DNA of 64,000 bases from an uncultured Actinomycetota bacterium (GCA_963829855.1 CAWHKE010000009.1:4202-68201), one strand, 5' to 3'. Counted from the stretch's first letter, positions 1-17,553 are shown. Made by a program: numbers and translations. The notes: generated from the sequence alone by a model not told the origin.

Positions 1-184
1 TTCCCACGAGCTTGGCCTTGGTCGAGGAAGCGACCCCCCGCCCTGGCTGGACGTACGGGGCCGACAGCACGGTGACTCCGCTCTGCGCGCTGGGTGCGCC
101 ACTGCTGGGCGCTGAGGTGAGGACGAGCAAGGGCGAGAGCAGGCCGATCGCCGTTGCGACGGCCATCCGAGAGCGCGTGGACAT
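1..184 (-). CDS. Secreted protein, N-terminal fragment (gene runs off the left edge)
   Basis: My reverse translation from ATG 184-182 gives MSTRSRMAVATAIGLLSPLLVLTSAPSSGAPSAQ..., which has a basic n-region, a hydrophobic core and small residues like a signal peptide. GGGGGA lies just upstream and third positions are mostly G/C. It is absent from the ORF track because it is truncated. Confidence 0.35.
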   Translation of the reverse strand, partial: MSTRSRMAVATAIGLLSPLLVLTSAPSSGAPSAQSGVTVLSAPYVQPGRGVASSTKAKLVG

Positions 185-369: not shown

Positions 370-2358
370 GTGGGGGCCCGAGGGCGCCTCGCCGTGAGGC
401 GCCGACCCGTTCGGGGGCCCGCCGGCCACCTACGCGAAGCGCGGGACGTCCTGTTCCTGGTCGCTCCCGGGGTGGATGCCGGGGCTGCCCTCGAGACAGT
501 CCCGGGCGCACGCAGCCACGCCCTCGCGAGTCCCGTCCCGCGCCCCCGCGAGCGCGATGCGGTCATCCTCGTGGTGCGCGACCTGACCCAGCTGCGGTCG
601 TCGATCACGGGGGTCGCGAACTTCGGCTCCGCCCGCCAGGTGGGCGTGTGGTTCCAGCGTCCGGTCCACAGGCTCCCGATCACGACCCTCCACCCGGAGT
701 GGCCGGACGTCGATCAGGTCGTCGCGGTCCGCACGCCGGAGAGCTTCATCGTCGTCTCCTTCCTCGAGCGCGCGCAGGTGCGGCCGGTTCTCGTCGAGCT
801 CGCGAGGGCAGCCGCCCCGTCCGGGACACTTGCTTCGGGATGGCCCGCAGTCGGTGCCGAGCGCGACCATCCGGCGTCCTGGCCCCCCGCTGAGCCCTCG
901 GCCAAGATCGCACTGCGCGCCCGCTTGCTCGACCAGTCCGCTGAACTCCCACCGGACGTCGTCCTGGTGACCGGAACGGACGCCGAGGGGACGCCCTCCG
1001 ACGATCATGCGGCGCTGGGCAGGCCGACCCACGTGACGGTGGTCGAACCCGAACTCACCTGGGCCATGTGGGACTCACTCACCTCGGAGGAGTCGACCGA
1101 GGCGCTGGCGCGGCGGGGGCCGGGGTCTTTGGGGCCCGTGGACGACCAGCTCGTCAACCCGATCGGTTTCGATCGCGACCCGCCCGGTGGCACGGGGAGC
1201 CTGAGGGGGGCCAGGAACGGTTCCCTCGCGGTCGCCGGCGAGCTGGTCCCCGGGTCTGGTGAGGTGGCCGTCGAGCACGGGGTCAGCGATGCCGACCTGC
1301 CGACGCTGCGGGGCCTGGCGGGCGTGCGCCTCGACTGGACCGGAGGCCGAGGCCCGCAGCACTACTGCCGGGTCGTGGCCGAGCTGGCCGCCGCTGGGGT
1401 CCCGCTGGTCACGACCGCGGTGCCGGCATGGGCGCGCCACCTGCTCTCCCCCGACCTCCTCACCGCCCTCGGTGCACCCGTCGACCTGACCGACCGACTG
1501 CGTCGGGAGGAGCACAGCATCCGGATCAGGCGGGCCGCCCTACGAGACCACGGACAGCGCGCGTGGCGGCGAGCGCTGGCGCGCGGCCACGGCCTGCAGG
1601 AGGTGCCCCAGCCCCGCATCAGCGCGCTGCTCGTGACACGTCGACCCGACATGCTCACCTTCGCACTGCGCCAGCTGGCTCGACAGCGCTGGGGGAGCCT
1701 CGAGGTGGTGCTGGCCACGCATGGGTTCGATCCGGACCCGGTGGCGCTCTCGGCGTTCCGCGAGGCGACCTCGGTGCCGGTGACGACCCTGACCGTCGAG
1801 GCGTCCGTGCCCTTCGGGCAGGTTCTCAACACCGCCGCCGATCGAGCCAGCGGCGACCTCCTTGCGAAGGTGGACGACGACGACTGGTACTCCCCGGACT
1901 TCCTGGGGGACCTACAGCTCGCTCATGCCTACAGCGGCGCCGAGCTGGTGGGGTGTCCTCCGGAGTTCACGTTCATCGAACCGTTGTGGCTCACCACTCG
2001 ACGCGCCACCCCGACGGAGGTGTACCGACCGTTCGTCGCCGGTGGGACGTTGCTGGTGGAGCGTGGTCTCTTCTGGTCGCTGGGCGGCTTCAGGCACACC
2101 CTCCGGTCGGTCGACGCGACGCTGCTGTCGGCGGTGACGGGGGCAGGGGGGCGGGTCTTCCGCACGCAGGGACTCGGCTACGTGCTGCGCCGGGCCGCGT
2201 CGGGGCACACCTGGGACCCCGGACTGGGCTACTTCCTGGCCGGCGAACGCGCGAGCGACCAGTGGCGCGGATTCCGCCCGAGCGCGCTGCTCGATCCCGA
2301 CCCCACAACCCTGCCGGACCGACCCGACGAGGCTCCAGATACCATCGAGATGCCATGA
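370..2358 (+). CDS. Glycosyltransferase family 2-like protein with a large uncharacterised N-terminal region
   Basis: The C-terminal third reads ISALLVTRRPDMLTFAL...VDDDDWYSPDFL, a GT-A fold with an acidic DXD-type motif. G/C third positions are near 95% from about nt 600 but lower at 430-480, so the true start is uncertain (370 to about 560). The stop overlaps the next gene's ATG (ATGA at 2355-2358). Confidence 0.7.
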   Translation: MGARGRLAVRRRPVRGPAGHLREARDVLFLVAPGVDAGAALETVPGARSHALASPVPRPRERDAVILVVRDLTQLRSSITGVANFGSARQVGVWFQRPVHRLPITTLHPEWPDVDQVVAVRTPESFIVVSFLERAQVRPVLVELARAAAPSGTLASGWPAVGAERDHPASWPPAEPSAKIALRARLLDQSAELPPDVVLVTGTDAEGTPSDDHAALGRPTHVTVVEPELTWAMWDSLTSEESTEALARRGPGSLGPVDDQLVNPIGFDRDPPGGTGSLRGARNGSLAVAGELVPGSGEVAVEHGVSDADLPTLRGLAGVRLDWTGGRGPQHYCRVVAELAAAGVPLVTTAVPAWARHLLSPDLLTALGAPVDLTDRLRREEHSIRIRRAALRDHGQRAWRRALARGHGLQEVPQPRISALLVTRRPDMLTFALRQLARQRWGSLEVVLATHGFDPDPVALSAFREATSVPVTTLTVEASVPFGQVLNTAADRASGDLLAKVDDDDWYSPDFLGDLQLAHAYSGAELVGCPPEFTFIEPLWLTTRRATPTEVYRPFVAGGTLLVERGLFWSLGGFRHTLRSVDATLLSAVTGAGGRVFRTQGLGYVLRRAASGHTWDPGLGYFLAGERASDQWRGFRPSALLDPDPTTLPDRPDEAPDTIEMP

Positions 2359-3943
2359 CTCTCGGACCTGGCCCTCGTGTGAAGGGCAATGACTGGAGCG
2401 TGCTCGACCCTCCGGACCCGGGCTCGTACGTACCGTCGCGGACGGTCAGCGTCGTGATCCCGGCCTACCGCGCGCAGGACACCCTGCCATACACCCTGGC
2501 CGCTCTGGAGGCCCAGTCATACCCGGCGCACCTGCTCGAGGTCGTGGTCGTGGACGACGACGACGACAGCCCGCGCCTAGACCTCCCCGAGCGTCGTCCC
2601 GAGCGGACGAGGCTCGTCGACGCCACGTCATCCTGGGGTCCGGCCAACGCTCGCGATGCGGGCGCCGCCGTGGCCGAGGGGGAGGTCATCCACTGGCTCG
2701 ACGCCGACATGGTGCCCGACCGTGACCACGTCGCCCAGCAGATGCGTTGGCACCACGTGCTCGACCACGCCGTGGTGCTCGGTCACAAGCGGTTCGTGGA
2801 CCGGGCGCCCCTCCCACCGGTCGACGAGGTGCATCGGGCGGTCGTCGAGGGGCGACTGGACGACGTGCTCGCGCGGGGATGGGTCGAGGACCACGCCTGG
2901 GTCGAGGCGATCTGGTCACGGACGGACGACCTGAAGACCGCGGGCTTCCGCGCCTTCCACGTGCATGTCGGGGCCACCGCCAGCGCCCGACGTGAGCTGT
3001 ATGCCGCTGCGGGGGGCATAGACATTCGCTGAAGCTCGGGGAGGACGTCGAACTGGGGTACCGCCTGGCGATGCGGGGGGCCGTCTTCGTCGCGGATCGC
3101 GGTGCTACGAGCTGGCACCTCGGGCGCTCGCACCTGATGCGACTCGAGTCACTCGTGCAGCGCTACAACACGCCCTTCGTCGCCCAGCGGGTCCCGGACT
3201 TCCGCAAGTTCCGCCAGTGCCGCGGCCGCTCGTACCAGGTGCCGTACATCGAGGTCGTGATCCCCGTGGCGGGGCACGCCTGGGAACTGGTGAAATACAC
3301 CGTCGACGGGGTGCTCCAGGCCCAGCCCTCCGACCTGCGCTGCGTGCTCGTGGGCCCGTGGGGCGACCTGCACGACGAGCGGCGACAGCTGCTGCAGGAC
3401 GACGCCCTCGACCTCCGCCTGGTCCAGGAGGAGTACGCGTCGGACCGACGCGTGGTCATGGCCGAGGCCGCCGAACCGACCGCGTTCCCGGCTCAGTTCC
3501 GGCTCCGGCTCCCGGTCGGCTGGCGGCCCGGGGCGATGACCCTCGAACGTCTGACCCGTGAGATGCAGCGGCGCTCCCAGGGCCTGCGCTCCGTGATCCT
3601 CGGTGCAGGTCAGGTCGCGCGGCTCGAACGGACGGCGGCGTTCGAACGCGCCCGTCGCGTCCGATCACCGGGCGAGACCATCGACGATGCCGTCGATACC
3701 GTCTCCGAGACGTGGTGGTCCGACGGTGCCGAGGACGGGTTCGAGTGTCCCGAGGTGCCGCTCGAGCCACCGGCCAAGCCAGGCCCGGCACCGCAGGTGG
3801 ATCGCGCGGACCCGTGGGCGTCGTCCGCACCGACCGCGGGTGTTCTGGGAGAGGCGGCGATCGTCGAGCAGGATCAACCCGGGTTCCCGGGGCGCCGCAG
3901 CCTGTCCCGCCTGCGCCCCCACTCGTTCGGCGGCCGTCGCTGA
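2355..3943 (+). pseudogene. GT2 glycosyltransferase interrupted by a 1-nt deletion (frames join near 3024-3030)
   Basis: ORF 2355-3032 has VSVVIPAYRAQDTLPYTLAALEAQ...VVVDDDDD...HWLDADM and ends ...AAAGGIDIR*. The +2 frame is open from 2996 and reads ...SLKLGEDVELGYRLAMRGAVFVAD (track ORF 3071-3943), which is the canonical GT2 GEDxELxxRL continuation. Total length is 1589 nt, which is 3n-1. Confidence 0.7.
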
Positions 3944-4519
3944 CAAGTTGGCCGGGCCTCAACTGGCGCGACGCGCATCAGTCCTTCGAGTCTGTCTGCT
4001 CTCAGGGTGCAGCAGCCACCCGCGGCATCGCCTCCGGACTCGGACTACAGCGCCTCGGTGACGATCGACCTGGACGCCCTCGAAAGTCATCATCTCACGG
4101 TTGGCATTCGATCGACCACGCGAGGACCAACGCTGCCGACGGAGCGAAATCTGATGACCTACGGGGGGCTGTCCGGGGACTTGACGGTCAGCACCACGGG
4201 TTCAGACATTGAACCTCGAAGAGCGCCTGATGCGACCTGCGCTGGAGAAGCAAGCTCATCGCCGCTGGCGGGAGCATGTGACGAGCTGTGACGAGGTGGA
4301 GCACCTCGTGCGCCCTAGACGCAGCGGTGCCGACCATGCTTTGTCACGCGAGCCATGGCAAGATCGACCATCAAGTGGGAGCGAGCCCACTCGCCTTGTT
4401 CGGAACCTGGCCGAGTCTTGCAGCAGCCAAAGATTAGGCTTCGCGCGGTGCGGACGTTGCTGCACTGAGACACCAAGGACCCCCATGACTCTCGGATCAC
4501 GATTCCCGCAGGGCCCCCC

Positions 4520-7500
4520 ATGCCCGCCTCGCAGTCAGCGACTCAAGTTCAAGTGCGGGATGCCCGCATGAGCCCGCGCGGCGTCGACCTTTCGGTCGTC
4601 ATTGGGTTCAAGGACTGGGGTGTCGACCGCCTGCGGCTGGCCGTCGAGTCACTTGTCGGCTCCTTCGGCGACCTGTGTGGCGAAGTCATCGTGTCGGACT
4701 ACGGGTCCACTACCTGCCCTGAAGTGAAGCAGGTCGTGGAGGATGCGGGTGGTCGCCACGTCTACACCCACACCGACGGAACCTGGTCGAGGTCGCGTGC
4801 CCTGAATGCCGGGTTCGCAGAATCCACGGGGTTCGTCCTGGTGTCGACGGACGCAGACATGCTGTTCGCCCCGAGGTCAATGGAGGTCATCGGAGAACGG
4901 GTGATGACGGATCCGTGGGAGGCCCTGGTCCTACAGTGCAGAGATCTGCCTCCTGGCATGGGCAGTGACTGGGTTGACGCGAACGGGCCCCAATGGGGCG
5001 CGCTTCGCGCCGCATCGACTCTTCGTCCTCGCTGGGGGATGGGGGGGATGATGGCAGTCGCGCGGGATGCCTTCTTGGACGTGCGCGGTTTCGATGAGCG
5101 GATGCAGATCTATGGCGGCGAGGACCTCGACTTCGCACAGCGGGTGAGGCGGTCGGGACGACGGGTGAGTTGGATAGAGGATCCCGACGTACGCATGTAC
5201 CACATGTGGCACCCGTCCTCTCGAACGGCGGCCAGCGAGACAACGGTGGGCTTGGCGGCCATCGAGTACAACCGAGATGTACTTCTCAACGATGCCTCGA
5301 TCATCCGCAACATCACGACCTGGCGCCACAGGACACCCGATGCTCCGCCGGTGGCGTCGGTCGTCATCGTGACGCGAAACAGGGCCGCGCTCCTGCGCGA
5401 GAGTCTGAGTTCCGCCCTGGCTCAGACGGTCCAGGACATAGAGGTTCTCGTCGTCGACGACGGGTCCGATGACGATACCCGTGAGGTGGTCGAACGCGTT
5501 CAGGACCCGCGCGTCCGATACCTGCGCTCGCCAGGCACAGGTATCGCTGCGGCGCGCAACTTCGCGGCAACTCACACCCGTGGCAAGTACACCGTTGTCC
5601 ACGATGACGACGACATGATGATGCCCGACCGCATTGAGCATCACTTGGCGAGCTTGGAGGCGGGGGACTCAGGCAACTACGGGGGATGGGTCGACTTCGA
5701 TGGCACGACGGGGGAAGTCGTCGCGGTCAACAGAGGGAAGCCGTACTCCCTGATGGCGCTGCTCTTCTCCGAGCGCGTGTATGCCCACGCCACCGTGATG
5801 CTGGAGACCCGGTTGATTCGCGAGGTCGGGTATGACGAGCGCTTCCGGTCCGGATCTGACTACAACCTCGCCATCCGACTGGCTCGCCTGGGGATAACTC
5901 TCCGGCACACAGGTCGGATCCACCTCGCGCGTCGCCTCCACTCAGACCAGGTGACCTACCACGACACGAGGACCCAGCAGTCAGCCGGCCGTTGGACCTC
6001 GGGGGCGGCCCTGGGCTTGATCGCACCCGACCGGCACGCCGCCATCCGTGCGTCGGCCCGTCAGGTCGCTCCTGTCGACTTGGGCATGGACGACCAAGAA
6101 GCGGGAAGGTCGATTCGCCCATTCCTCCCCGATCGATTCGTGTGTCGCGACCTTCATGTCGTGATGATGCCGGGCGAGGTGTCGGGAGCCGCGTCTGAGG
6201 TCACGGAAGTCGTGGCCATCGAGGAGTTGCTCCACGGCCATGCGGAGCGCCTCGTGTGTGGTGTGGTCCGAGACGTGACGTGGGACGAGTGGGCGGCCTT
6301 GAGTCGCCACGCACGGTGCACCGTGCTCCGCTCCCGTATGCGCACTGGCAAGCCTGCGCCCCTCGTGGCCGTGGAAACCGGCGAGCACTTTCGCCGCATC
6401 GCAATGCTCCTGCTCCATACCTTGCCGACGACCAAGGCCGCGTTGGTGGTGGGGCACTGGGACGAAATCGATCTGCAGAAGTCGTGTTTGCTCGGCCATT
6501 GGAGGGCCGGCAGTGACCAGGCCTTGCTCGTTTCGTTGCCGGCGGGTCAGCCCATGGTCGATGAGCTGCGCACGTCCTCAGGGGCCCACGTCCGGGTGAT
6601 GCAGGCTCCGCGAAGCCTGCCTTCCAAGCGAAAGCCTGAGACCTCAGCGAGACCCGTGCAGCGCGTGGTGCCGAAGGCGCCGAAGAAGCCAAAGCTCGCT
6701 GGGCAAGAGGGGGTTCGCCGCGGCAAGCCAGCGACGTCCCGAAGGGCGGCCGACAAAGGCACTGGCGCGCGGGGTGGGACCCAAGCGGGCAAACGGCAGG
6801 TGACACCCCGGAGGTCACCGGCCAAGGTGCCAGGCCGCGGTTCTCTTGGCTCCGACGCAGTCGGGGATGACGTCCCCAAGGGTCCGCGCGCGCACAAGAA
6901 GTCAGGCGCGCCTCGCGCGCGTACGAGTCCGCTTGAGCACGAGCCGCGGGGGTTCTTCACACGCCGCCGCGCTCTCATCGGGTCTGTGACACTGTCGGCG
7001 TTGTGTGGTGGGGTGGCCGTCAGCGCCCTCATGGGCGGTGGGCTGGGGGCCGCTGTTGCGATGGCTGTCGGAGTGTGGTTTGCCGTCACAGCGGGACTGC
7101 TGCTCATGCTGATGTTTCGAGCGATCGACTCGGCGAGAGACGTTGAACATGTCGCGCGCGGCGCCGCGCGGCGCGCGCGATCGGCGGCTGAGTCCAACGG
7201 TCGACAGGCTCGGCGTCAACATCAGCGAGCGCTCTTGAGGGAACGAAAGTTCACCGAGAAGGCGAACGAGCGCCTCGTGGCTCAAATCGCGCAGCGCGTT
7301 GGTGAGCAGCAGCGCACGGACGATGATCGACTGCTGGGAAGGATCTCCGAACGGGTTACTGCTCTGGAAGCGCTTCTCGGCGAACTGGCTGGGCAGGAGG
7401 CGGTGGCGCTTGAAGCAGCTGCTGCTGGACTGGCTGATCGTTTGACCATGCTCCAGGCACCCCTCTCATCGATTGATGAACGCATACGAGGTCTAGAAGA

Positions 7501-8254
7501 GGCGTTGACGGCGCTCGACCTACGCCTTTCCGGGGCCCAGGAGCAACAGGCCGAGCTGCTCAAGGCAACGAGGGCCGTTCCTGACGCCGTTGAGATGCGC
7601 ACGCGCGCTCAGCTTCGACATCAGCTGGATGAGGCGCAGGCACTGGTTAATCTCTTCCGGCTCGCGCCCCTAAAGGCTGCGGCCCCTCGGATGGGCGGCT
7701 GGGCTGCCTCCGCTGATGTCGTGCTCCGGATCGTGGACGAGCTGCTCGCGAACGAGCCCAAGGTAGTAGTGGAGTGTGGCAGCGGCGCGTCTACGGTATG
7801 GATGGCCCTGGTCATCCGCGAGTTTGGCCTCCCCAGTCACATCGTGGCCCTTGAACACGACGAGAAGTTCGCAACTGCTACGAGGCTTCAGCTGGAACGG
7901 CTCGGGGTTTCCGATCATGCGGAGGTGCGGCTGACTCCGTTGAGAACGACTAACGTGATACCTGGACACACCACACCGTGGTACGACCCGACACTCCTGC
8001 AGGACCTCAACGACATCGGACTTCTCTTCGTAGACGGGCCGCCTGGTGGCACCGGAGCCCAGGCCCGCTTGCCAGCTGTGCCGGTTCTCATGGGGCGACT
8101 CGCTGATGTGTGCACCATCGTGGTCGACGATCTTCACCGCCCGGAGGAACAGGCAATCGTTGAACGCTGGCGTGACCTGCTCGACGACTTCGACCACGAA
8201 GTACTTCCCGGAGAGAAGCCTGCCGCGATCCTCACCAGACGGGCGCGTACGTAA
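4520..8254 (+). CDS. Multidomain membrane protein: GT2 (aa 23-235), GT2 (aa 279-478), unknown domain (aa 480-697), K/R/P-rich linker (aa 698-817), TM hairpin (aa 818-866), coiled coil (aa 867-1047) and class I SAM-methyltransferase-like domain (aa 1055-1244)
   Basis: GT2-A: LSVVIGFKDWG...STDADMLF...YGGEDLDFAQRV. GT2-B: ASVVIVTRNRAALL...VLVVDDGSDDDT...HDDDDMMMPD. TM hairpin: ALIGSVTLSALCGGVAVSALMGGGLGAAVAMAVGVWFAVTAGLLLMLMF. Coiled-coil-like stretch: RISERVTALEALLGELAG...IDERIRGLEEALTALDLRL. C-terminus: VVVECGSGASTVWMALV...LLFVDGPPGG (Methyltransf_24-like). An alternative start is M17 (nt 4568). Confidence 0.85.
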   Translation: MPASQSATQVQVRDARMSPRGVDLSVVIGFKDWGVDRLRLAVESLVGSFGDLCGEVIVSDYGSTTCPEVKQVVEDAGGRHVYTHTDGTWSRSRALNAGFAESTGFVLVSTDADMLFAPRSMEVIGERVMTDPWEALVLQCRDLPPGMGSDWVDANGPQWGALRAASTLRPRWGMGGMMAVARDAFLDVRGFDERMQIYGGEDLDFAQRVRRSGRRVSWIEDPDVRMYHMWHPSSRTAASETTVGLAAIEYNRDVLLNDASIIRNITTWRHRTPDAPPVASVVIVTRNRAALLRESLSSALAQTVQDIEVLVVDDGSDDDTREVVERVQDPRVRYLRSPGTGIAAARNFAATHTRGKYTVVHDDDDMMMPDRIEHHLASLEAGDSGNYGGWVDFDGTTGEVVAVNRGKPYSLMALLFSERVYAHATVMLETRLIREVGYDERFRSGSDYNLAIRLARLGITLRHTGRIHLARRLHSDQVTYHDTRTQQSAGRWTSGAALGLIAPDRHAAIRASARQVAPVDLGMDDQEAGRSIRPFLPDRFVCRDLHVVMMPGEVSGAASEVTEVVAIEELLHGHAERLVCGVVRDVTWDEWAALSRHARCTVLRSRMRTGKPAPLVAVETGEHFRRIAMLLLHTLPTTKAALVVGHWDEIDLQKSCLLGHWRAGSDQALLVSLPAGQPMVDELRTSSGAHVRVMQAPRSLPSKRKPETSARPVQRVVPKAPKKPKLAGQEGVRRGKPATSRRAADKGTGARGGTQAGKRQVTPRRSPAKVPGRGSLGSDAVGDDVPKGPRAHKKSGAPRARTSPLEHEPRGFFTRRRALIGSVTLSALCGGVAVSALMGGGLGAAVAMAVGVWFAVTAGLLLMLMFRAIDSARDVEHVARGAARRARSAAESNGRQARRQHQRALLRERKFTEKANERLVAQIAQRVGEQQRTDDDRLLGRISERVTALEALLGELAGQEAVALEAAAAGLADRLTMLQAPLSSIDERIRGLEEALTALDLRLSGAQEQQAELLKATRAVPDAVEMRTRAQLRHQLDEAQALVNLFRLAPLKAAAPRMGGWAASADVVLRIVDELLANEPKVVVECGSGASTVWMALVIREFGLPSHIVALEHDEKFATATRLQLERLGVSDHAEVRLTPLRTTNVIPGHTTPWYDPTLLQDLNDIGLLFVDGPPGGTGAQARLPAVPVLMGRLADVCTIVVDDLHRPEEQAIVERWRDLLDDFDHEVLPGEKPAAILTRRART

Positions 8255-8265
8255 AGGGACTTGCT

Positions 8266-9549
8266 GTGGACAACGATCAATTGGTGGAGCCGTCGAGCGT
8301 CGTTGACCTTGTGGTAGTCGGCTTGGGCTACGTGGGCTTGCCACTTGCGCATCGCGCGACTGAGGCAGGCCTGTCTGTACTCGGGTTCGACGTCAATGGG
8401 GACGTCGTGGACGGACTCAATTCCGGGGTCTCCCACATCGACGATCTGGATGATGCGGAGATGGGGTTCATGCTGGAGGCTGGGTTCAAAGCCACAACGG
8501 ATCCCAATGTCCTGCGTGCCACGACGGCAGCCGCGATCTGTGTGCCGACACCTCTCGCGGCGAGCGGCGGCCCTGATCTCTCGGCAGTCCGCGCTGCGTG
8601 TGCCACGATCGGGGATCACGTGAAGGCGAATACGCTTGTGGTGCTCGAGTCCACGACCTATCCGGGGACGACTGCCGAGGTCGTAGGACCCGCCTTGGAA
8701 GAGCGCTCTGGGCTTCGAGTCGGAGACGACTTGTTCCTTGCCTTCTCGCCCGAGCGTATCGACCCAGGGAACGCCGAGTTCGGCGTGGCAAATACGCCTA
8801 AGGTGGTGGGTGCGGACGACCCCTTGAGCCTCAAGCGTGCGACAGAGTTGTACGGGGTAATGGTCGGAGAAGTCGTTGAGGCCAAGGGAACGCGCGAGGC
8901 GGAGGCCGCCAAACTGCTCGAAAACACCTACCGGCACGTCAACATCGCTCTCGTGAACGAGATGAGCCAGGTGTTTCATGCTCTCGAGGTCGACGTGTGG
9001 GACGTGATACGTCTCGCGGCAACCAAACCGTTTGGTTTCGCTCCCTTCTACCCCGGCCCAGGCGTCGGCGGGCACTGCATCCCCATCGACCCGAACTATC
9101 TCAGTCACCACGTGCGTAGCCAGCTCGGGTTCGGTTTTCGAATCATCGAGCTGTCGCAGGAGATCAACCAGATGATGCCCGCCTACATTGCCCGCCGGGT
9201 GCAGTCGCTCCTGAATGATGAGGGTCGCCCAGTGCGCGGCAGCAAGGTCTTGTTGCTGGGCACGACGTACAAGCCCGACATCGCGGATCAACGGGAGTCA
9301 CCGTCGTCGGCGGTAGCGAGTGAACTGGCTTCTCTCGGTGCGGAGCTGTACTACCACGATCCGCATGTCCTTCAGTGGCTCCACGGAGTGACACGAGTCG
9401 AAGACCCATACGCATCAGCTGGTGACATGGACCTGTGCGTCCTGCTCGTCAACCACAAGCGATACGACGTTCCTGCGTTGGTTTCCGCTAGCCGCCTCTT
9501 CTTTGACACGCGAGGCGCCACCGAGGGCGACGACGCCATCCGTCTATAA
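8266..9549 (+). CDS. Nucleotide-sugar 6-dehydrogenase, UDP-N-acetylhexosamine (GlcNAc/ManNAc) dehydrogenase-like
   Basis: It has a Rossmann VVVGLGYVGLPLA motif, FSPERIDPGN, and the catalytic Cys motif GVGGHCIPIDP. The GTG start lies 11 nt after the upstream stop and is preceded by AAAGGGA, so it is in an operon with the giant gene. Confidence 0.9.
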   Translation: MDNDQLVEPSSVVDLVVVGLGYVGLPLAHRATEAGLSVLGFDVNGDVVDGLNSGVSHIDDLDDAEMGFMLEAGFKATTDPNVLRATTAAAICVPTPLAASGGPDLSAVRAACATIGDHVKANTLVVLESTTYPGTTAEVVGPALEERSGLRVGDDLFLAFSPERIDPGNAEFGVANTPKVVGADDPLSLKRATELYGVMVGEVVEAKGTREAEAAKLLENTYRHVNIALVNEMSQVFHALEVDVWDVIRLAATKPFGFAPFYPGPGVGGHCIPIDPNYLSHHVRSQLGFGFRIIELSQEINQMMPAYIARRVQSLLNDEGRPVRGSKVLLLGTTYKPDIADQRESPSSAVASELASLGAELYYHDPHVLQWLHGVTRVEDPYASAGDMDLCVLLVNHKRYDVPALVSASRLFFDTRGATEGDDAIRL

Positions 9550-9587
9550 CCCTTCAGCAGCGAGACATGCTCGGACGGTCCCGGGGT

Positions 9588-10232
9588 TCAGCTGGCGAAC
9601 TCGACAGTGAGCCCGCTCGACTGCAACAAGTCCCCCACGCGCTCGCTAAGCACGGACGGGCGCGACGCCCCCGGGAGGCGAAGGGTGCCGATCCCAAAGT
9701 CCTCGGCAAGCAGCACAGCGGCTGCTATGTGTGGCATCAGACGTACCAATGCGTCGTCAGACTGCGGCGACAACAAGGTCGCGTTCGTTGGGACCGTTGT
9801 CACGGTCGGTGCAAACAGATGGCCGAAATCTTGACCCGATGAGCTCAGGCGCAGTCGGGAGACGCCCTCGTTCGGACGGTCGTTGACCGCCTCTCCCGGT
9901 GTATCTGGCGCCTCAACCTGGAATACGCCCGTACCGAGCGGCATCTCCTTCGGATGGAACTCGAGTGGTCCAGGGAACGTCGTCGCGGGAGACAAGAACT
10001 CGCTGATGCTCCTCGCCAGCTCCGGGGCGATCCCGTGGGGGAACGTCGCGGCACCTGAGATGAAGGGTCGAAACGCCAACACTGCGGCCGCGGCAAGTCG
10101 TCCGGGACTGGCGAATCGAGGGCTGAAGTCCATCATCAGCGACGACGGCGCCGGATAGCCGTCGTAGTCCTCCGCGATCGCCGTCAGCGCGCAGCCGCCC
10201 ATGTCCAAGTTCGGGTGCCACTCGAACCTCAT
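9588..10232 (-). CDS. Hypothetical protein, no recognisable motif
   Basis: A 214-aa ORF with GGGAGGTTGGGAGAGG just upstream of the ATG. It lies in the low-GC island, convergent with the dehydrogenase. I recognise no family. Confidence 0.5.
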   Translation of the reverse strand: MRFEWHPNLDMGGCALTAIAEDYDGYPAPSSLMMDFSPRFASPGRLAAAAVLAFRPFISGAATFPHGIAPELARSISEFLSPATTFPGPLEFHPKEMPLGTGVFQVEAPDTPGEAVNDRPNEGVSRLRLSSSGQDFGHLFAPTVTTVPTNATLLSPQSDDALVRLMPHIAAAVLLAEDFGIGTLRLPGASRPSVLSERVGDLLQSSGLTVEFAS

Positions 10233-10279
10233 CAGACCTCTCCCAACCTCCCAGATCCGCCCTGGATGTCCCTACCCGC

Positions 10280-11572
10280 TCAGTCGCCGGAGTTGATCAT
10301 GCCGGCGCCGACCGTGATGCCGGTCGCCTCGTCGATCAGGATGAACGAGCCGGTGGACCGGTTCTTGGAGTAGGGGTCGCACAGCAGCGGCACCGTGGTG
10401 CGCAGCTGGACGCGGCCGATCTCGTTGAGACCGAGCTCCTTGGTCTCCTGGTCGCGGTGCAGCGTGTTGACGTCGAGCCGGTACTGGATGTCCTTGACCA
10501 TCGCCCGGCCGCTGCGGGTGGTGTGCTTGATCGCCAGCTTCTGGCGCGGCCGGAGCGGGGCGTTGGTCATCCAGCAGACCATCGCGTCGATGTCCTGGCT
10601 GGGCTTCGGCGCGTTCTTGACGCGGGCGATCATGTCGCCGCGGGAGACGTCGACGTCGTCCTCGAGGTGGACGGTGACGCTCATCGGCGGGAACGCCTCG
10701 GTGATCTCCTCGTCGAACAGGTCGATCTTGGAGATGGTCGAGGTCATGCCCGAGGGGAGGACGACGACCTCGTCACCGGGCTTGAGGACGCCACCGGCCA
10801 CCTGGCCGGCGTACCCGCGGTAGTCGTGGTACTGGTCGGACTTCGGCCGGACGACGTACTGCACCGGGAACCGGACGTCGACCAGGTCGCGGTCGGACGC
10901 GACGTGGATGTGCTCGAGGTGGTGCATCAGCGTGGAGCCGGAGTACCACGGCATCTCCTCGCTCCGGGTCACGACGTTGTCGCCCTTGAGCGCCGAGATC
11001 GGGATGACCTCGAGGTCCGGGATCGCGAGCTTGGTCGCGAACTGGGTGAACTCCTGGTGGATCCGGTCGTAGACCTCCTGGGAGTAGTCGACGAGGTCCA
11101 TCTTGTTCACGGCCAGCACGAGGTGCGGCACCCGCAGCAGCGAGAGGATCACGGCGTGCCGGCGCGACTGCTCGGTCAGGCCCTGGCGGGCGTCGACGAG
11201 CACCAGGCCGAGGTCGGCCGTCGAGGCGCCGGTGACCATGTTGCGCGTGTACTGCACGTGGCCCGGGGTGTCGGCGATGATGAACTTGCGACTCGGCGTC
11301 GCGAAGTAGCGGTAGGCGACGTCGATCGTGATGCCCTGCTCACGCTCGGAGCGCAGGCCGTCGGTCAGCAGCGCGAGGTCGGTGTAGTCGTACCCCTTCG
11401 CCTGCGAGGACGACTCCACGGCCTCGAGCTGGTCCTCGAAGATCGCCTTCGAGTCGAGCAGCAGGCGCCCGATCAGGGTCGACTTGCCGTCGTCCACGGA
11501 CCCGGCGGTCGCGAACCGGAGCAGGTCCATCTCGCGCTTGTCGGTGCCGGACTGGTCGGAAACGGTGCTCAT
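10280..11572 (-). CDS. cysN: Sulfate adenylyltransferase subunit 1 (GTPase)
   Basis: It has the GSVDDGKSTLIGRLL P-loop, DTPGH and NKMD GTPase motifs. The ATG shares one nt with the cysD stop (TGATG). Confidence 0.95.
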   Translation of the reverse strand: MSTVSDQSGTDKREMDLLRFATAGSVDDGKSTLIGRLLLDSKAIFEDQLEAVESSSQAKGYDYTDLALLTDGLRSEREQGITIDVAYRYFATPSRKFIIADTPGHVQYTRNMVTGASTADLGLVLVDARQGLTEQSRRHAVILSLLRVPHLVLAVNKMDLVDYSQEVYDRIHQEFTQFATKLAIPDLEVIPISALKGDNVVTRSEEMPWYSGSTLMHHLEHIHVASDRDLVDVRFPVQYVVRPKSDQYHDYRGYAGQVAGGVLKPGDEVVVLPSGMTSTISKIDLFDEEITEAFPPMSVTVHLEDDVDVSRGDMIARVKNAPKPSQDIDAMVCWMTNAPLRPRQKLAIKHTTRSGRAMVKDIQYRLDVNTLHRDQETKELGLNEIGRVQLRTTVPLLCDPYSKNRSTGSFILIDEATGITVGAGMINSGD

Positions 11573-12492
11573 CAGAAGTAGCCTTCCTTCTTCCGGTCCT
11601 CCATGGCTGCCTCGGAGAACCGGTCGTCGCCGCGGGTCGCGCCGCGCTCGGTCACGCGGGCGATCGCGATCTCGTCGATGATCTTCTCGATCGTGTCGGC
11701 CTCGGACTCCACGCAGCCGGTGAGCGTCAGGTCACCCACGGTGCGGAAGCGCACGGTCCGCTCCTCGACGGTCTCGTTGCCCTTGGTCGGGTTGAACTCG
11801 CTCTCCGACAGCAGCATGCCGTCACGCAGGAACACGCGACGCTGGTGGGAGAAGTAGATGGTCGGGATCTCGATCTGCTCGCGGCCGAGGTAGTGCCAGA
11901 TGTCCAGCTCGGTCCAGTTGGAGAGCGGGAAGATCCGCATGTGCTCGCCCTCGTGGAGCCGGCCGTTGTAGAGGCTCCAGAGCTCCGGGCGCTGCATCTT
12001 GGGGTCCCACTGACCGAACTCGTCGCGGTGGGAGTAGACGCGCTCCTTGGCGCGGGCCTTCTCCTCGTCGCGGCGGCCGCCACCGAAGGCGGCGGTGTAG
12101 CCCTCCTCCTCCAGCGCGTGGAGCAGGGTGCCGATCTGCAGCCGGTTGCGAGACGTCTTGCCGTCGTCGACGACCACGCCGTTCTCGATGGCCTCCTCGA
12201 CGGAGGCGACCTTGAGCTTCACGCCCAGCCGGTCGACCCAGGAGTCGCGGCAGGCGAGCACCTCGGGGAAGTCGTACCCGGTGTCGACCTGGAGCACGGG
12301 GAAGGGGATCTTGGCCGGGAAGAACGCCTTCTCGGCCAGGCGCAGCATCACGATCGAGTCCTTGCCGCCCGAGAACATCAGGACGGGCTTCTCGAACTCG
12401 GCGGCGACCTCACGGAAGATGTGGATCGACTCCGCTTCGAGCTGGTCGAGCTGGCTCAGCTGGTAGTCGACATGGGTCGGCGGTGCAGTCAT
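11572..12492 (-). CDS. cysD: Sulfate adenylyltransferase subunit 2
   Basis: It carries the PAPS-reductase-fold motif VLMFSGGKDSIVML and is full length, with typical CysD sequence throughout. Confidence 0.95.
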   Translation of the reverse strand: MTAPPTHVDYQLSQLDQLEAESIHIFREVAAEFEKPVLMFSGGKDSIVMLRLAEKAFFPAKIPFPVLQVDTGYDFPEVLACRDSWVDRLGVKLKVASVEEAIENGVVVDDGKTSRNRLQIGTLLHALEEEGYTAAFGGGRRDEEKARAKERVYSHRDEFGQWDPKMQRPELWSLYNGRLHEGEHMRIFPLSNWTELDIWHYLGREQIEIPTIYFSHQRRVFLRDGMLLSESEFNPTKGNETVEERTVRFRTVGDLTLTGCVESEADTIEKIIDEIAIARVTERGATRGDDRFSEAAMEDRKKEGYF

Positions 12493-12595
12493 GGGGTGGC
12501 GGGACCTCTCCTCGGGGTAAGCGGGTTCATGCTAGCCGGGGACGTGGGAGGCGGCGGAATCGTCGTCCGGGGGCGGACGGCGGGGCCGCGCCCGG

Positions 12596-13639
12596 TCACG
12601 TCGGTGGTCCGGCGGTGCCCTCGGGGCCGCCGTCGCCGCGCTTCATGCCGACGATGCCGGGCCGGTACGACGGGTTCTCGAGCTCGGCCACGGTGGGCGA
12701 GCCGAACATGGGGATGCCCTGGCTGCGACGGATCAGGCCCCACACGAGCGGGAGCAGGACCACCATCGCCAGGCCCACCCCGGCCACCAGCAGGGGGTAG
12801 GTCTCGTCCTCGCCGGCTCCGAGCGGGGGCCACTGGGCCTTGTCGAGCAGCGCGACGCCCGACATGGTCAGCACCACCACGATGCCGCGTCGGATGTAGG
12901 ACTGCGGCACCCGGGGGGCGATCTTGGCGCCGATCATCGTGCCCGGGAGCGACCCGATGACGAGCGGGATCAGCAGCCCCCAGTCGAGCCCGTGGATGGC
13001 GATGTTGGAGATCGCGGCGGCGAGGACGAGCGGCACCGCCTGGACCAGGTCGGTGCCCACGAGCTTCGCGGCCGAGAGGCCGGGGTAGAGCATCAGCAGC
13101 GCGATCATGATGACGGAGCCGGAGCCGACGCTGGTGACGCCCACGAGCAGGCCGCCCAGTGCTCCGACGAGGACGGTGGGCAGGATCCGGATGGCGGGGT
13201 CGCTGTTGTCGGTCGTCTCGCCGAGCCGCACCCGACGCAGGTTGATCCACAGCCGGAGGGCGTAGGTGAGGGCCGCGAAGAGCAGCGCGAACCCGATGCA
13301 GAGCTTGAGGATGCGGTCGAGCTCGTCCTTGTCCGAGGTGAGGCTGAAGACGAGGTAGGGCCCCAGGAGGGCCATCGGGACCGACCCGATGATCAGCCAC
13401 TTGGCCAGCGCCAGGTTGGGCGTGCCCTCCCGGTGGTGCACCACCGCCCCGCCGGTCTTGTAGACGGCGGCGGCGGTGAGGTCGGCGGTGATGACCGCCG
13501 TCGTCTCGCCCACCCCCAGGAAGATCAGGGCAGGCGTCATCAGCGCGCCGCCACCCATCCCGGTCATGCCGACGACGATGCCGACGACGAAGCCGGCAGC
13601 GATGACGGCGAAGAACGTCGTCGTGATGACGTCGCCCAT
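12596..13639 (-). CDS. TauE/SafE (DUF81) family anion permease, possibly the sulfate uptake component of the operon
   Basis: It is polytopic, with GMTGMGGGALMTPALIFLG and a repeated half (GGLLVGVTSVGSGSVIM). It sits between cysC and cysD, like the DUF81-type CysZ proposed in Corynebacterium cys clusters. A soluble tail of about 50 aa follows. Confidence 0.8.
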   Translation of the reverse strand: MGDVITTTFFAVIAAGFVVGIVVGMTGMGGGALMTPALIFLGVGETTAVITADLTAAAVYKTGGAVVHHREGTPNLALAKWLIIGSVPMALLGPYLVFSLTSDKDELDRILKLCIGFALLFAALTYALRLWINLRRVRLGETTDNSDPAIRILPTVLVGALGGLLVGVTSVGSGSVIMIALLMLYPGLSAAKLVGTDLVQAVPLVLAAAISNIAIHGLDWGLLIPLVIGSLPGTMIGAKIAPRVPQSYIRRGIVVVLTMSGVALLDKAQWPPLGAGEDETYPLLVAGVGLAMVVLLPLVWGLIRRSQGIPMFGSPTVAELENPSYRPGIVGMKRGDGGPEGTAGPPT

Positions 13640-13715
13640 GAGTACCTCCCCTTAGACCCGTTGCCCGCCGAACTCTACTGAACTACCTGAGATGGTGGGA
13701 ATCAGCGGCGTGCGG

Positions 13716-14927: not shown

Positions 14928-14970
14928 GGCGCCATCCTGCCACCGGGCCGCCGGGGTGCCGCTGGTTAGG

Positions 14971-15357
14971 GTGCGTGCTGTGTCAGACGAGGCCGTGCCC
15001 GACCAGCACGCACGCTCCGCCGAGCGCCCCTGGGGCGCCTGGCACGTGCTCGACGTCGGCGACGGCTACAAGCTGAAGCGGATCGAGGTGCTGGCCGGTC
15101 ACCGGCTGTCGTACCAGACCCACGCGCACCGGTCCGAGCACTGGCTGGTCGTCTCCGGCACCGCCACCTGCGTGATCGACGGCCACGCCGTCGTCGTCGG
15201 GCCGGGCCAGCACGTCGACGTCGACCAGGGAGTGCCGCACCGGATCGCCAACGAGGGCGAGGAGCTGCTGGTGATCCTGGAGACCCAGCTCGGCCACTAC
15301 ACGGAGGAGGACGACATCGTGCGGCTCGAGGACGACTACGCGAGGTGCCCGGAGTGA
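14971..15357 (+). CDS. Cupin-type phosphomannose isomerase domain protein (type II PMI C-terminal domain)
   Basis: RPWGAWHVLDVGDGYKLKRIEVLAGHRLSYQTHAHRSEHWLVVSGTA...PHRIAN is the typical ManC/PMI cupin. The GTG start at 14971 is provisional (14980 is also possible). Confidence 0.75.
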   Translation: MRAVSDEAVPDQHARSAERPWGAWHVLDVGDGYKLKRIEVLAGHRLSYQTHAHRSEHWLVVSGTATCVIDGHAVVVGPGQHVDVDQGVPHRIANEGEELLVILETQLGHYTEEDDIVRLEDDYARCPE

Positions 15358-16344: not shown

Positions 16345-16402
16345 GACCGAGATACCCGGATCACCGACTGTGAAGCACCTCACGCTTGCTCAGTTTGCAT
16401 TT

Positions 16403-16420: not shown

Positions 16421-16430
16421 CAGTGGGGGC

Positions 16431-16811: not shown

Positions 16812-16816
16812 GCCGC

Positions 16817-17485: not shown

Positions 17486-17502
17486 ACGACCTCGTTCGAC
17501 TC

Positions 17503-17534: not shown

Positions 17535-17553
17535 GGCGTCTCCGGGTGCGAGC

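Follow-up and report, generated by a model that had tools for sequence, protein, structure and literature searches.

A two-domain glycosyltransferase polymerase joined through a membrane hairpin and a helical stalk to a C-terminal O-methyltransferase in a Nocardioides-like actinobacterium

Could one actinobacterial polypeptide polymerize a glycan, measure its length and cap it? The question is raised by an uninterrupted ORF of 1244 aa (positions 4520..8254, + strand) in a 64,000-nucleotide stretch of DNA (the window; coordinates are counted from its first letter), which a sequence-only reading had interpreted as a polymerase, a coiled-coil ruler and a terminating methyltransferase in a single chain. 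The public gene call (P0001) uses an alternative start at M17 (nt 4568, + strand) and is 1228 aa long. The ORF proved real, as the GC1/GC2/GC3 coding pattern was held over its entire length with no frame break, and six full-length metagenomic homologues (46-53% identity, conserved end to end) were recovered from JGI, ENA and Logan samples. These homologues come from independent metagenomes and share the architecture, with the linker and transmembrane (TM) region found in every one, so the fusion is not an artefact of assembly. End-to-end matches were confined to two 50%-identity clusters among 1.84 billion representatives. The fusion gene is genuine but rare, and its host is a soil bacterium of a Nocardioides-like lineage that is, as had been supposed, Gram-positive. 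The architecture and domain identities described below are regarded as very nearly certain.

The N-terminal half contains two GT2 domains, both detected by Pfam. GT2 domain A (aa 23-235; 4586..5224, + strand) was matched by Glycos_transf_2 (aa ~23-235) and Glyco_transf_7C (174-229), and GT2 domain B (aa 279-478; 5354..5953, + strand) by Glycos_transf_2 (aa 280-403 onward, E 1e-39). All motifs previously read from the translation were present: DAD at 111-113 (the DXD, D111-A-D113) and GGEDLDF at 199-205 in domain A, DDGSDDD at 313-319 and HDDDD at 361-365 in domain B. The motif residues, DXD included, were invariant across 57 homologues, and domain A was modeled by AF2 with pLDDT >90. Both domains aligned to the E. 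coli K4 chondroitin polymerase (K4CP), which was the PDB sequence match of aa 163-479 (2z86/2z87, E 2e-28) and the top Foldseek structural match of the N-terminus (E 3e-26, ~520 columns), with PmHS2 second. These matches bear out the proposal of a polymerase-type two-GT2 synthase; by sequence and model, the N-terminal ~480 aa are predicted to be a K4CP/KfoC-type bifunctional polymerase with two GT-A domains and the DXD intact in each. The ~220 aa that follow had been left unassigned, and Pfam and PDB sequence searches indeed returned no match, but a confidently folded α/β domain, family-specific and here called X (aa ~541-696; 6140..6607, + strand), was found within them by AF2 (compact β/α fold, pLDDT mostly 75-95). 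The X domain is shared with a ~700-aa standalone family and missing from a compact fusion (P0257).

Between the X domain and the membrane lies a basic tether (aa 700-817; 6617..6970, + strand). It is P/G/A-rich with 27% K/R, close to the ~120-aa linker with about a quarter K/R that had been described, is predicted to be disordered (AF2 pLDDT <50 from ~aa 703), and differs in length and sequence between fusions. The TM hairpin (aa 818-866, ~49 aa; 6971..7117, + strand) consists of two Gly/Ala-rich helices with GGG between them and basic flanks, and was the sole segment with a Kyte-Doolittle mean >1.6, in agreement with the two back-to-back helices proposed. Since both of its flanks are basic, both termini, and all catalytic domains with them, should face the cytoplasm, as was earlier suggested. 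Every fusion has a hairpin in the corresponding place, as do most members of a profiled set of 120 standalone MTase24 relatives (118 of them measurable for spacer length).

The C-terminal domain (aa 1049-1244; 7664..8251, + strand) was matched by Pfam Methyltransf_24 (aa 1084-1204, E 2.5e-9), by a PDB profile (E 8e-7) and, with probability 1.00 and E ~1e-9, by Foldseek to Rv0187, COMT, CCoAOMT-like OMTs and SafC; AF2 pLDDT was >90. The translation contains the motif-I-like VVVECGSGASTVW and LLFVDGP, and the methyltransferase motifs are GGWAAS, E1085-x-GSG-x-S, ALEH1113D, FVD1172GPP and D1203-D1204. Across 82 methyltransferase homologues 20 columns were invariant, including motif I, H1113, D1172 and D1203/D1204. 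The suspected SAM methyltransferase is thus upheld, and sequence and model together identify the domain as a genuine class I O-methyltransferase fold, COMT-type and predicted to be cation-dependent. The C-terminal ~430 aa as a whole are a widespread actinobacterial module made up of TM hairpin, helical spacer and COMT-like metal-dependent O-methyltransferase. To our knowledge, neither terminal-methyl chemistry nor enzyme activity has been established for any member of the fusion/MTase24 family.

The stalk, or spacer, that separates hairpin from methyltransferase (aa 867-1048; 7118..7663, + strand) was delimited from AF2 and periodicity. AF2 gave helices at aa 861-976 (116 residues) and 983-1048 (66 residues) with pLDDT 63-92, so that the segment was not predicted to be disordered; because the helix is broken at aa 977-982, the two may fold back on each other. 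A fixed hairpin turn is argued against, as proline positions in the stalk are unconserved among fusions and P0006 has no proline. Hydrophobic periodicity was 3.6-3.67 residues (z = 4-14), significant in 7/7 fusions, while the heptad test gave no significance at 3.5 residues and a clean heptad register was confined to aa ~957-992. Of the claim that aa 867-1047 form a coiled coil, the helical part therefore stood but the heptad part did not, its signal being weak. From TM end to motif I the distance was 188-232 aa in the long fusions, and for standalone relatives the modes were 80-89 and 120-139 aa, giving spacer length classes of ~84, ~128 and 188-232 aa. The spacers of most family members have ~37 free residues, too short for long rulers.

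The gene is embedded in a glycan cluster. Starting 11 bp downstream is an NDP-sugar dehydrogenase (8266..9549, + strand; Pfam UDPG_MGDP_dh N, central and C; NCBIfam TIGR03026 at 390 bits); the orthologues that adjoin the L001 and L002 fusions are 56% identical. A UDP-sugar dehydrogenase had been named at this position; its identity was refined, since the top-scoring models were of the UDP-N-acetyl-hexosamine type (UDP-ManNAc DH, TviB; under every equivalog cut-off) and not UDP-glucose dehydrogenase. A conserved 214-aa partner protein (9588..10232, - strand), recognized by homology across loci, returned no match in Pfam and PDB searches; in about 28/32 loci the dual-GT2 gene is directly followed by a homologue of it. 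Upstream, a 662-aa protein with a Pfam GT2 domain (370..2358, + strand) is a syntenic cluster member, 50% identical to GT2 proteins of 652 aa (L001) and 609 aa (L002). A second cluster GT2 (2370..3943, + strand), detected by tblastn as a homologue of a 469-aa L001 protein, is split over two frames (matches at 2370-3023 and 3011-3745) at a G-run near 3011-3017; because of this frameshifted neighbor, the cluster copy may be less than fully functional. At the window edge, tblastn to the GH16 proteins of L001 and L002, in which signal peptides are visible, revealed a secreted GH16 truncated to its N-terminus, the signal-peptide region (2..151, - strand). On the other side, cysN, cysD, a TauE-type permease and cysC for PAPS synthesis (10280..14927, - strand; NCBIfam, Pfam) abut the glycan island, with GC3 of 0.95-0.98 vs. 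0.74 in the island. Sister clusters carry sulfotransferases, and we infer that the PAPS genes are associated with the glycan cluster. The 64-kb window and the 15-kb fusion contigs were searched for Wzm/Wzt-type exporter, Wzx and initiating transferase genes, and none was present. Wzm/Wzt pairs were found beside short-form dual-GT2 genes in 7/32 loci. The ATPases of the short-form loci are 282-354 aa long, a size that would hardly accommodate the cap-reading CBM by which Gram-negative systems couple termination to export.

We are confident that polymerase and methyltransferase are functionally coupled, because five independent arrangements join them. In Terrabacter (L011) and Arthrobacter (L012), the gene immediately preceding the dual GT2 encodes a soluble ~250-aa MTase24 with neither anchor nor stalk; a TM-anchored MTase24 adjoins large multi-GT genes in 5/6 standalone loci (L006, L007, L008, L042 and L043); and the others are the long-stalk fusions, the compact short-spacer fusion P0257 and a giant multi-domain protein (P0371). 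In addition, P0008 has no methyltransferase but retains TM hairpin and helical tail, and UDP-GlcNAc 2-epimerase and dehydrogenase genes adjoin the standalone MTase24 genes in L007, L042 and L043. As relatives have very short spacers or a soluble, stalkless methyltransferase, the partnership does not depend on a long stalk.

The best overall explanation, to which we give somewhat less than an even chance, is a polymerase combined with a stalk-mounted capping methyltransferase that follows ruler logic. On a lipid carrier at the membrane's inner face, the polymerase would build an alternating uronic-acid glycan, probably with HexNAcA, from a precursor that the co-transcribed dehydrogenase would supply. 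The long helical stalk would project from the membrane with the methyltransferase at its end, the flexible tether would allow the polymerase to track the growing chain end, and the terminal non-reducing sugar would be O-methylated once the chain was long enough to reach the methyltransferase, thereby capping it. The glycan would be exported and possibly sulfated. An exported polymer is favored by the signal-peptide GH16 in the cluster and by Wzm/Wzt in 7/32 short-form loci. Such a protein would follow the logic of WbdD, WbbB and K. pneumoniae O7 ORF6 in a new topology, and a distal terminator on a coiled coil has been described as the hallmark of that assembly strategy (PMC11231755). Taken separately, the capping-plus-ruler role of methyltransferase and stalk is proposed tentatively. 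Against a ruler are the polymerase on a floppy tether, unfixed at the membrane, and the periodicity of 3.6-3.67 residues, not 3.5.

The C-terminal module could instead be an anchor or scaffold that brings an otherwise soluble polymerase to the membrane, which we consider doubtful though far from negligible. Methylation would then fall on residues within the chain, on the primer or near the reducing end, and chain growth would not be ended by it, while the helical region would serve oligomerization or partner binding and measure no length. The commonest relatives agree with this, holding the methyltransferase ~37 free residues from the hairpin and near the membrane, as do the short spacer of P0257, the stalkless soluble enzymes of L011 and L012, and P0008, which suggests an anchoring role for hairpin and helical tail by themselves. 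The observed periodicity suits generic amphipathic helices, and no cap-reading exporter was found in the loci searched. Left unexplained, however, are the occurrence of the longest family spacers (188-232 aa, rigid helices) in X-domain fusions and the existence of discrete length classes. A COMT-type metal-dependent OMT would, moreover, usually chelate a pair of neighboring hydroxyls, and the terminal sugar is where a linear polymer would most readily have them free. Every characterized system with such domain logic uses the stalk-mounted enzyme as its terminator (PMC11231755).

That the product is an intracellular O-methylated polysaccharide, cytoplasmic or membrane-associated like mycobacterial MGLP/MMP, instead of an exported wall polymer, is improbable. 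All catalytic domains should be cytoplasmic, neither the window nor the fusion contigs showed an exporter, and actinobacteria are known to make methylated polysaccharides of this kind (mycobacterial methylmannose polysaccharides; PMC9883506, in the portion available), yet the signal-peptide GH16, the Wzm/Wzt exporters of relatives, uronic-acid and sulfotransferase genes typical of surface polymers, and an island-like composition as in variable surface-glycan loci all argue for the exterior. Still less probable is a synthase-type secretion modeled on class I hyaluronan or cellulose synthases, in which the TM hairpins of an oligomer would form the translocation path and couple polymerization to export. 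Gly/Ala small-xxx-small motifs in the hairpin favor helix packing and no separate exporter was found nearby, but there are only two TM helices, with a 120-aa disordered tether between them and the GT domains, and these domains resemble the soluble K4CP/PmHS2 class, unlike membrane-embedded synthases. Moreover, TM segments are absent from the ~700-aa relatives (some lie beside Wzm/Wzt), and standalone methyltransferases without any GT domain are anchored through the same hairpin. That the ORF is an assembly chimera, or that a sequencing error merged two adjacent genes, is scarcely credible: the window derives from a metagenome-type contig, a neighboring gene has a homopolymer frameshift and the two halves are separate genes in other genomes, but the coding GC3 signal is unbroken and the six independent homologues have the same continuous architecture, linker/TM region included.

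The polymerase half resembles KfoC and the Pasteurella enzymes PmHS2, PmHAS and PmCS in its tandem GT-A/GT2 domains with DXD and in the UDP-sugar dehydrogenase of its locus. It differs from these class II GAG synthases in identity (~20%) and relative domain orientation (TM-score 0.37-0.42), in the added α/β domain, TM hairpin, stalk and methyltransferase, and in a locus with a UDP-HexNAc-type dehydrogenase and no Kps export locus. For the proposed product, teichuronic acids (TUA) offer a comparison; the TUA synthetase enzymes of M. luteus are reportedly proteins of ~54 kDa and ~52.5 kDa. TUA of M. luteus (PMC3005890, in the portion available) and TUA-WTA of Streptomyces (bioRxiv 10.1101/2025.04.24.650519) are actinobacterial-wall polymers with HexNAc-uronic-acid repeats, the latter with a 4-O-acetyl modification at the non-reducing end; a methyl cap is unreported for either in the available portions of these sources. 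The epimerase and dehydrogenase genes of L007, L042 and L043 fit ManNAcA synthesis, with no gene-level link to teichuronic acids implied.

As in the WbdD-WbdA systems of E. coli O9a and K. pneumoniae O3, membrane attachment, a helical stalk and a distal methyltransferase (there the terminator) are combined with a dual-GT polymerase at the membrane-proximal end, and split versions, with a multi-GT gene beside a TM-MTase24 gene (e.g., L008), resemble the WbdA/WbdD pair. In WbdD, however, the anchor is a C-terminal amphipathic helix and not a TM hairpin, and a kinase accompanies the methyltransferase; WbdA is of GT4 type and not K4CP-like GT2, and no WbdD chain was among the PDB sequence matches of the fusion protein. 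In WbbB of Raoultella and K. pneumoniae O12, polymerase, coiled-coil ruler and terminator are likewise in a single polypeptide, but the terminator is a β-Kdo glycosyltransferase and there is no TM hairpin; no WbbB chain was among the PDB matches of the N-terminal region.

Two published precedents make the novelty weaker than in the sequence-only reading, which had not recognized the arrangement as described. WsaE of Geobacillus stearothermophilus (S-layer glycan) is a Gram-positive fusion of a chain-capping O-methyltransferase with two polymerizing glycosyltransferase domains (PMC2943079); it is soluble, with neither TM anchor nor long helical spacer, has its methyltransferase at the N-terminus, makes a rhamnan and not a uronic-acid polymer, and is encoded next to wzm/wzt. 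K. pneumoniae O7 ORF6 has two GT2 modules, a long helical spacer (a coiled coil) and a far-end SAM-dependent methyltransferase(-kinase) in one protein, with chain termination by the methyltransferase side shown experimentally (PMC11231755). It comes from a Gram-negative wzm/wzt locus, whereas the fusion is actinobacterial with no exporter in the window, and it has kinase and CBM-like domains and no integral TM hairpin. The ORF6 methyltransferase is CgnL-like and N-terminal, with the GTs C-terminal; in the actinobacterial fusion this order is reversed, the methyltransferase is of the COMT-like Methyltransf_24 type, and a disordered tether connects the polymerase to its anchor.

The open reading frame at 4520..8254 (+) encodes a protein of 1244 aa, and the public gene call (P0001) begins at M17. 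Two GT2 domains and a Methyltransf_24 domain were found with Pfam, as the sequence-only reading had assigned them, and all of the motifs quoted in that reading were found in the protein. The remaining parts it described were also located: a basic linker (aa 700-817, 27% K/R, with many P and G), a TM segment (a single strongly hydrophobic stretch, aa 818-866, with basic residues on either side), a region rich in Ala, Arg, Leu and Glu after the TM stretch, and a neighboring sugar dehydrogenase gene, here an NDP-sugar dehydrogenase 11 bp downstream of the fusion gene. Window GC was 71-75%, and the window CysS was 84-89% identical to that of named Nocardioides species, indicating a Nocardioides-like actinobacterium. 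The coding signature (GC3 > GC2) was kept through the entire fusion ORF. GC3 was 0.74 in this ORF vs. 0.95-0.98 in the neighboring and flanking core genes (e.g. cysD, cysN); it was 0.73-0.77 across window positions ~4200-10250, with the GT2 genes upstream at 0.86-0.87. The stretch at ~4.2-10.2 kb is therefore compositionally foreign, and this low-GC3 island suggests that the polymerase, dehydrogenase and partner-protein genes were horizontally acquired.

The fusion is genuine and rare. Six metagenomic homologues (P0002-P0007; 1163-1267 aa, 46-53% identity) had the entire architecture in common, and when 1.84 billion cluster representatives were scanned exhaustively with HMMER, only two 50%-identity clusters matched end to end. 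An assembly or annotation chimera, which the sequence-only reading had named as a risk, was ruled out by these six independent full-length homologues together with the unbroken coding signal. Conservation across the fusions was very high in the GT2 domains, high in the methyltransferase and moderate in the X domain (the α/β domain after the second GT2); the TM hairpin was conserved in position only, and the tether and stalk were poorly conserved and also differed in length. Both halves, taken singly, are members of large families. Dual-GT2-plus-X proteins of ~700 aa (the short form) were found in Arthrobacter, Glutamicibacter, Rothia, Corynebacterium, Brevibacterium, Tessaracoccus and others, and proteins made of a TM hairpin, a spacer and Methyltransf_24 in Terrabacter, Nocardioides, Micromonospora and others.

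For the N-terminal half (aa 1-707), the closest solved relative by phmmer against PDB was the E. coli K4 chondroitin polymerase KfoC (K4CP; 2z86/2z87, E 2e-28), followed by Pasteurella heparosan synthase 2. With 57 homologues as input, aa 17-727 were modeled confidently by AF2 (pLDDT 90.2, pTM 0.90). Foldseek placed K4CP far in front (E 2.8e-26, ~520 aligned columns spanning both GT-A domains), and the DXD and acidic motifs of both GT-A domains were invariant in the family. Tandem K4CP-like GT-A domains, each with a DXD, are the arrangement of class II GAG-synthase-type polymerases. The sequence and structure matches and the invariant motifs thus identify the N-terminal half as a predicted class-II/K4CP-type bifunctional polymerase, in agreement with the earlier proposal of a two-GT2 synthase. 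The region previously left unassigned corresponded to the X domain, modeled as a compact α/β fold at ~aa 541-696, and the model was disordered from ~aa 703 onward. No relatives of the X domain were found in Pfam (E up to 10) or PDB (phmmer), and when the whole N-terminal model was searched with Foldseek, GT-A matches dominated.

The C-terminal half (aa 860-1244) was modeled from 82 homologues (pLDDT 89, with the Rossmann-type domain >90). Foldseek neighbors of the C-terminal domain were Rv0187, COMT, CCoAOMT-like enzymes and SafC, all cation-dependent class I O-methyltransferases (E ~1e-9, probability 1.00, TM up to 0.73). The PDB profile search agreed with this assignment, and the Pfam match to Methyltransf_24 had an E value of 1e-9, so that the lack of a methyltransferase match, which the sequence-only reading had named as refuting its proposal, does not apply. 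The Rossmann-type fold, the glycine-rich motif I and the acidic residue at the end of β2 that define class I were all present. Twenty columns were invariant in the 82 sequences, including E-x-G-S-G-x-S (motif I), H1113, W-Y 1154/5, D-G-P-P 1172-75, R1183 and D-D 1203/4; 'ALEH' of the fusion protein aligned to 'TLEY' of Rv0187. The invariant D1172 and D1203-D1204 follow the strands where an Asp/Asp/Asn(Asp) metal triad is expected and are candidates for it, and 'DGPP' stands where COMT has the catalytic Lys of 'DxDK'. A DUF579/GXMT-like identity was backed by no match, the structural neighbors being COMT/CCoAOMT-type OMTs. Literature searches found nothing relevant on Methyltransf_24/PF13578 in glycan capping and were unproductive for methyl-capped actinobacterial wall polymers.

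This methyltransferase fold, with intact SAM motifs, forms the distal end of the predicted stalk. In the AF2 monomer the stalk consisted of a helix at aa 861-976 (116 residues), a break at aa 977-982 and a second helix at aa 983-1048 (66 residues), and not of the disorder that the sequence-only reading had named as counting against its proposal. Hydrophobic periodicity of the spacer was 3.6-3.67 residues and significant in 7/7 fusions (z = 4-14); a period of 3.5 was non-significant in six of the seven spacers, P0005 being the sole significant case, and a clean a/d register in the fusion protein was limited to aa ~957-992. A canonical heptad coiled coil was not supported by these values. The 'heptad-like' description is corrected accordingly, and the long-fusion spacers are predicted to be long amphipathic helices. 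Proline positions in the long spacers were not conserved and P0006 had none, which makes a conserved fold-back turn slightly less likely.

The spacing between the TM hairpin end and motif I, of which ~47 residues are part of the methyltransferase fold, was measured in 118 sequences. It was 80-89 aa in the ~300-aa standalone proteins (41 sequences) and 120-139 aa in the ~550-aa standalone proteins (36 sequences), with the remaining sequences in a tail of up to 234 aa. The seven long fusions measured 188-232 aa, and a compact fusion (P0257) 86 aa. Such a pattern would be expected of a tunable spacer. Across the relatives it also shows that the polymerase-methyltransferase partnership need not involve a long stalk.

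Pairing of Methyltransf_24 with polymerase-type GT2 domains recurs in several independent arrangements, which is evidence for joint action of the two halves. In Terrabacter sp. NPDC000476 (L011) and Arthrobacter sp. JSM 101049 (L012), a soluble Methyltransf_24 protein (243-255 aa, 35% identical to the C-terminus of the window fusion protein) was encoded directly upstream of a ~720-aa dual GT2. At another locus (L008), a 1067-aa GT2-GT2-GT1 protein lay immediately upstream of a 596-aa TM-Methyltransf_24 protein on the same strand. At two Nocardioides loci (L007, L042), a GT gene of 836 aa or 1236 aa faced a ~320-aa TM-Methyltransf_24 gene. These two loci share a conserved glycan island within a folate-gene region, in the order folP, DUF6270, large GT, ~320-aa TM-hairpin methyltransferase, UDP-GlcNAc 2-epimerase, NDP-sugar dehydrogenase, folE, ftsH. 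The Micromonospora locus (L043) carried the methyltransferase among GT2 genes, a sulfotransferase, a UDP-GlcNAc 2-epimerase and an NDP-sugar dehydrogenase, with an ABC-2 permease gene at the locus edge, and the unannotated 715-aa neighbor at L006 was dual-GT2-like. Only one of the six standalone loci examined (L044) was without nearby glycan genes. P0257 (856 aa) represents a distinct fusion type, in which a dual GT2 lacking the X domain is followed by a TM hairpin, then a short spacer and then Methyltransf_24, and P0371 (2518 aa) combines TPR, an FkbM-type methyltransferase, Methyltransf_24, three GT2 domains and one GT1.

On the two other fusion contigs (L001, L002), the cluster comprised a dehydrogenase, the fusion gene, a ~216-aa protein of no assigned function, Sulfotransfer_2, GH16 and two more GT2 genes. 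The window cluster had these genes in rearranged order; the sulfotransferase was not found in the window, which was searched for sulfotransferases and exporters by ORF scan, by a screen for ABC motifs and by tblastn, the queries being the sulfotransferases of L001 and L008 and the Wzm/Wzt of a relative's locus (L015). GH16 was cut by the left window edge (2-151, -). The gene is conserved in the fusion clusters, and the signal peptides of its homologues (L001, 9700-10890; L002, 12299-13486) point to a polymer outside the cytoplasm. One cluster GT2 lay at 370-2358. The second (2370-3943, +), a homologue of a 469-aa L001 protein, was split into two frames (ORFs 1428-3032 and 3071-3943) at a G-run near 3011-3017, with homology matched to 3745; either the break is genuine and the gene a frameshifted pseudogene, or the homopolymer was misassembled. 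The dehydrogenase, probably co-transcribed with the fusion gene, scored best with UDP-HexNAc dehydrogenase models. From these genes we infer a teichuronic-acid-like or glycosaminoglycan-like alternating polymer with N-acetyl-hexosaminuronic acid, possibly sulfated.

The soluble 214-aa protein (9588-10232, -; encoded on the cysN strand, 47 bp downstream of that gene) had no match in Pfam (E up to 10) or PDB (phmmer). A homologue was encoded immediately downstream of the dual-GT2 gene in ~28/32 actinobacterial loci, and it therefore looks like an obligate, core partner of the polymerase. Immediately next to the low-GC3 glycan island is a PAPS-synthesis operon with core-genome GC3 (10280-14927, -), made up of cysN, cysD, the gene for a TauE/SafE permease and that for a fusion protein containing cysC. 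The recurrence of sulfotransferases in sister clusters (Sulfotransfer_2 in L001 and L002, Sulfotransfer_3 in L008 and L043) hints at sulfated actinobacterial glycans.

Several further features of the window were recorded. Downstream of the cys operon lies a nucleotide-sugar gene block with core GC3 (14695-22764). It contains four epimerase/dehydratase genes, of which two are GDP-mannose-4,6-dehydratase-like, along with an RmlA-like nucleotidyltransferase gene and a fragment of mannose-6-P isomerase/cupin type; one of the epimerases (21751-22764) was 39-40% identical to the L001 and L005 cluster epimerases. An HTH_3 regulator followed by an overlapping 225-aa protein without a family match occupies 16431-17485 (+), and a DUF559/REase_MTES_1575 endonuclease-like gene 25696-26640 (-). 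The TypA/BipA ORF (28513-31170, -) is 885 aa as called, with the GTPase domain from residue 264, and an RNase H-DUF4440 gene with good support (30535-31416, +) overlaps it in the 5' part; TypA itself probably starts a long way further downstream.

Genes for Wzm/Wzt, for which the sequence-only reading had proposed a search, and for Wzx or an initiating transferase were found neither among the ~65 GC3-supported ORFs of the 64-kb window, which is cut on the left inside the cluster, nor on the partial fusion contigs L001 and L002. At short-form loci, a Wzt/TagH-type ATPase was encoded within 10 kb of the dual-GT2 gene in 7/32 cases, and ABC2_membrane and ABC_tran pairs were confirmed by Pfam in the Tersicoccus and Tessaracoccus loci. 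Judged from such pairs, the polymerase family can feed an ABC-transporter-dependent route. In the Gram-negative paradigm, termination is coupled to export by a cap-binding module (CBM), typically on Wzt; the ATPases at short-form loci were 282-354 aa, a size that presumably leaves little room for such a module.

How the parts of the fusion protein might act together was then considered. Synthase-type export through the TM hairpin was judged unlikely. Both enzyme types need cytoplasmic donors (UDP-sugars and SAM) and basic residues flank the hairpin on both sides, so all domains should face the cytoplasm. On one account, the main rival of the one preferred here, the C-terminal module does no more than provide an anchor and decorate the glycan. 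This view is favored by the relatives with short spacers, by those with no stalk and by a protein that carries a TM hairpin and helical tail without a methyltransferase (P0008), and we hold it to be a realistic candidate, although short of probable. The other account is a cap-and-ruler role, in which the polymerase on its floppy basic tether would lengthen a lipid-linked chain at the membrane, and the methyltransferase on its stiff helical stalk would contact the non-reducing end only once the chain is long enough and then cap it. Metal-dependent enzymes of the COMT type typically bind a pair of adjacent hydroxyls, and in a linear polymer such a pair would be most readily free on the terminal sugar, which lends support to end-specific methylation. 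We adopt the cap-and-ruler role as a tentative working model, with the odds somewhat against it. The fuller version of the cap-and-ruler account is an actinobacterial, membrane-integrated polymerase-ruler-terminator: a TM-hairpin-anchored rigid stalk would hold a metal-dependent cap O-methyltransferase at a set height, with the K4CP-like polymerase on a tether, and a lipid-linked wall glycan, which would contain uronic acid and might be sulfated, would grow until its end reaches the cap enzyme. Taken in all its parts, this machine is doubtful. If it is real, the family series (a soluble methyltransferase and spacers of ~84, ~128 and 188-232 aa, split and fused) would correspond to different chain-length regimes.

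To our knowledge, the way in which Gram-positive and actinobacterial wall glycopolymers (e.g. teichuronic-acid-like) get their chain length is largely unknown, and we know of demonstrations of the coiled-coil ruler concept only in Gram-negative O-antigen systems. The family offers a ready comparative series for testing the ruler principle in monoderm actinobacteria, with one methyltransferase unanchored or on short, medium or long helical spacers, fused or unfused to the polymerase. It also draws attention to the K4CP-like dual-GT2 polymerases with their 214-aa partner, a large and uncharacterised family present in Arthrobacter, Corynebacterium, Rothia and relatives, and to enzymes that might be of use in engineering glycosaminoglycan-like polymers.

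The logic of the fusion matches that of WbdD/WbdA, WbbB, K. pneumoniae O7 ORF6 and Geobacillus WsaE, and polymerising GT modules (two GT-A, invariant DXD) are present in the same protein, as in ruler/terminator machines. ORF6 is a single protein with a methyltransferase-kinase, a coiled coil and two GT2 modules; its terminating role was shown in vitro, and the strategy was described by its authors as widespread (PMC11231755). In the Gram-positive Geobacillus, WsaE has a capping methyltransferase fused with two polymerising GT domains (PMC2943079). Given these two precedents, neither the combination of polymerase, spacer and methyltransferase in one polypeptide nor a Gram-positive methyltransferase-polymerase fusion is new, and the sequence-only reading, which did not recognise the arrangement as described, is corrected on this point. 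Likeness to ORF6, which has no solved structure, and to WsaE is by description; that to WsaE lies in an analogous domain composition, with order, domain families and membrane anchoring all different and no exporter found here. No WbdD or WbbB chain was among the PDB sequence matches for either half of the fusion protein, and membership in the Gram-negative ruler/terminator family is not established. Overall, what the sequence-only reading observed is confirmed, and its interpretation is supported in part. The value of the system lies in its natural spacer-length series and its link to uncharacterised, possibly sulfated wall glycans, and not in a new principle. Compared with the known systems, the fusion protein is distinguished by an integral TM hairpin mid-protein, a disordered tether on the polymerase side, a K4CP-like polymerase joined to a COMT-like Methyltransf_24 methyltransferase, and an actinobacterial host, where the modular family occurs both split and fused and with spacers that are short or long.
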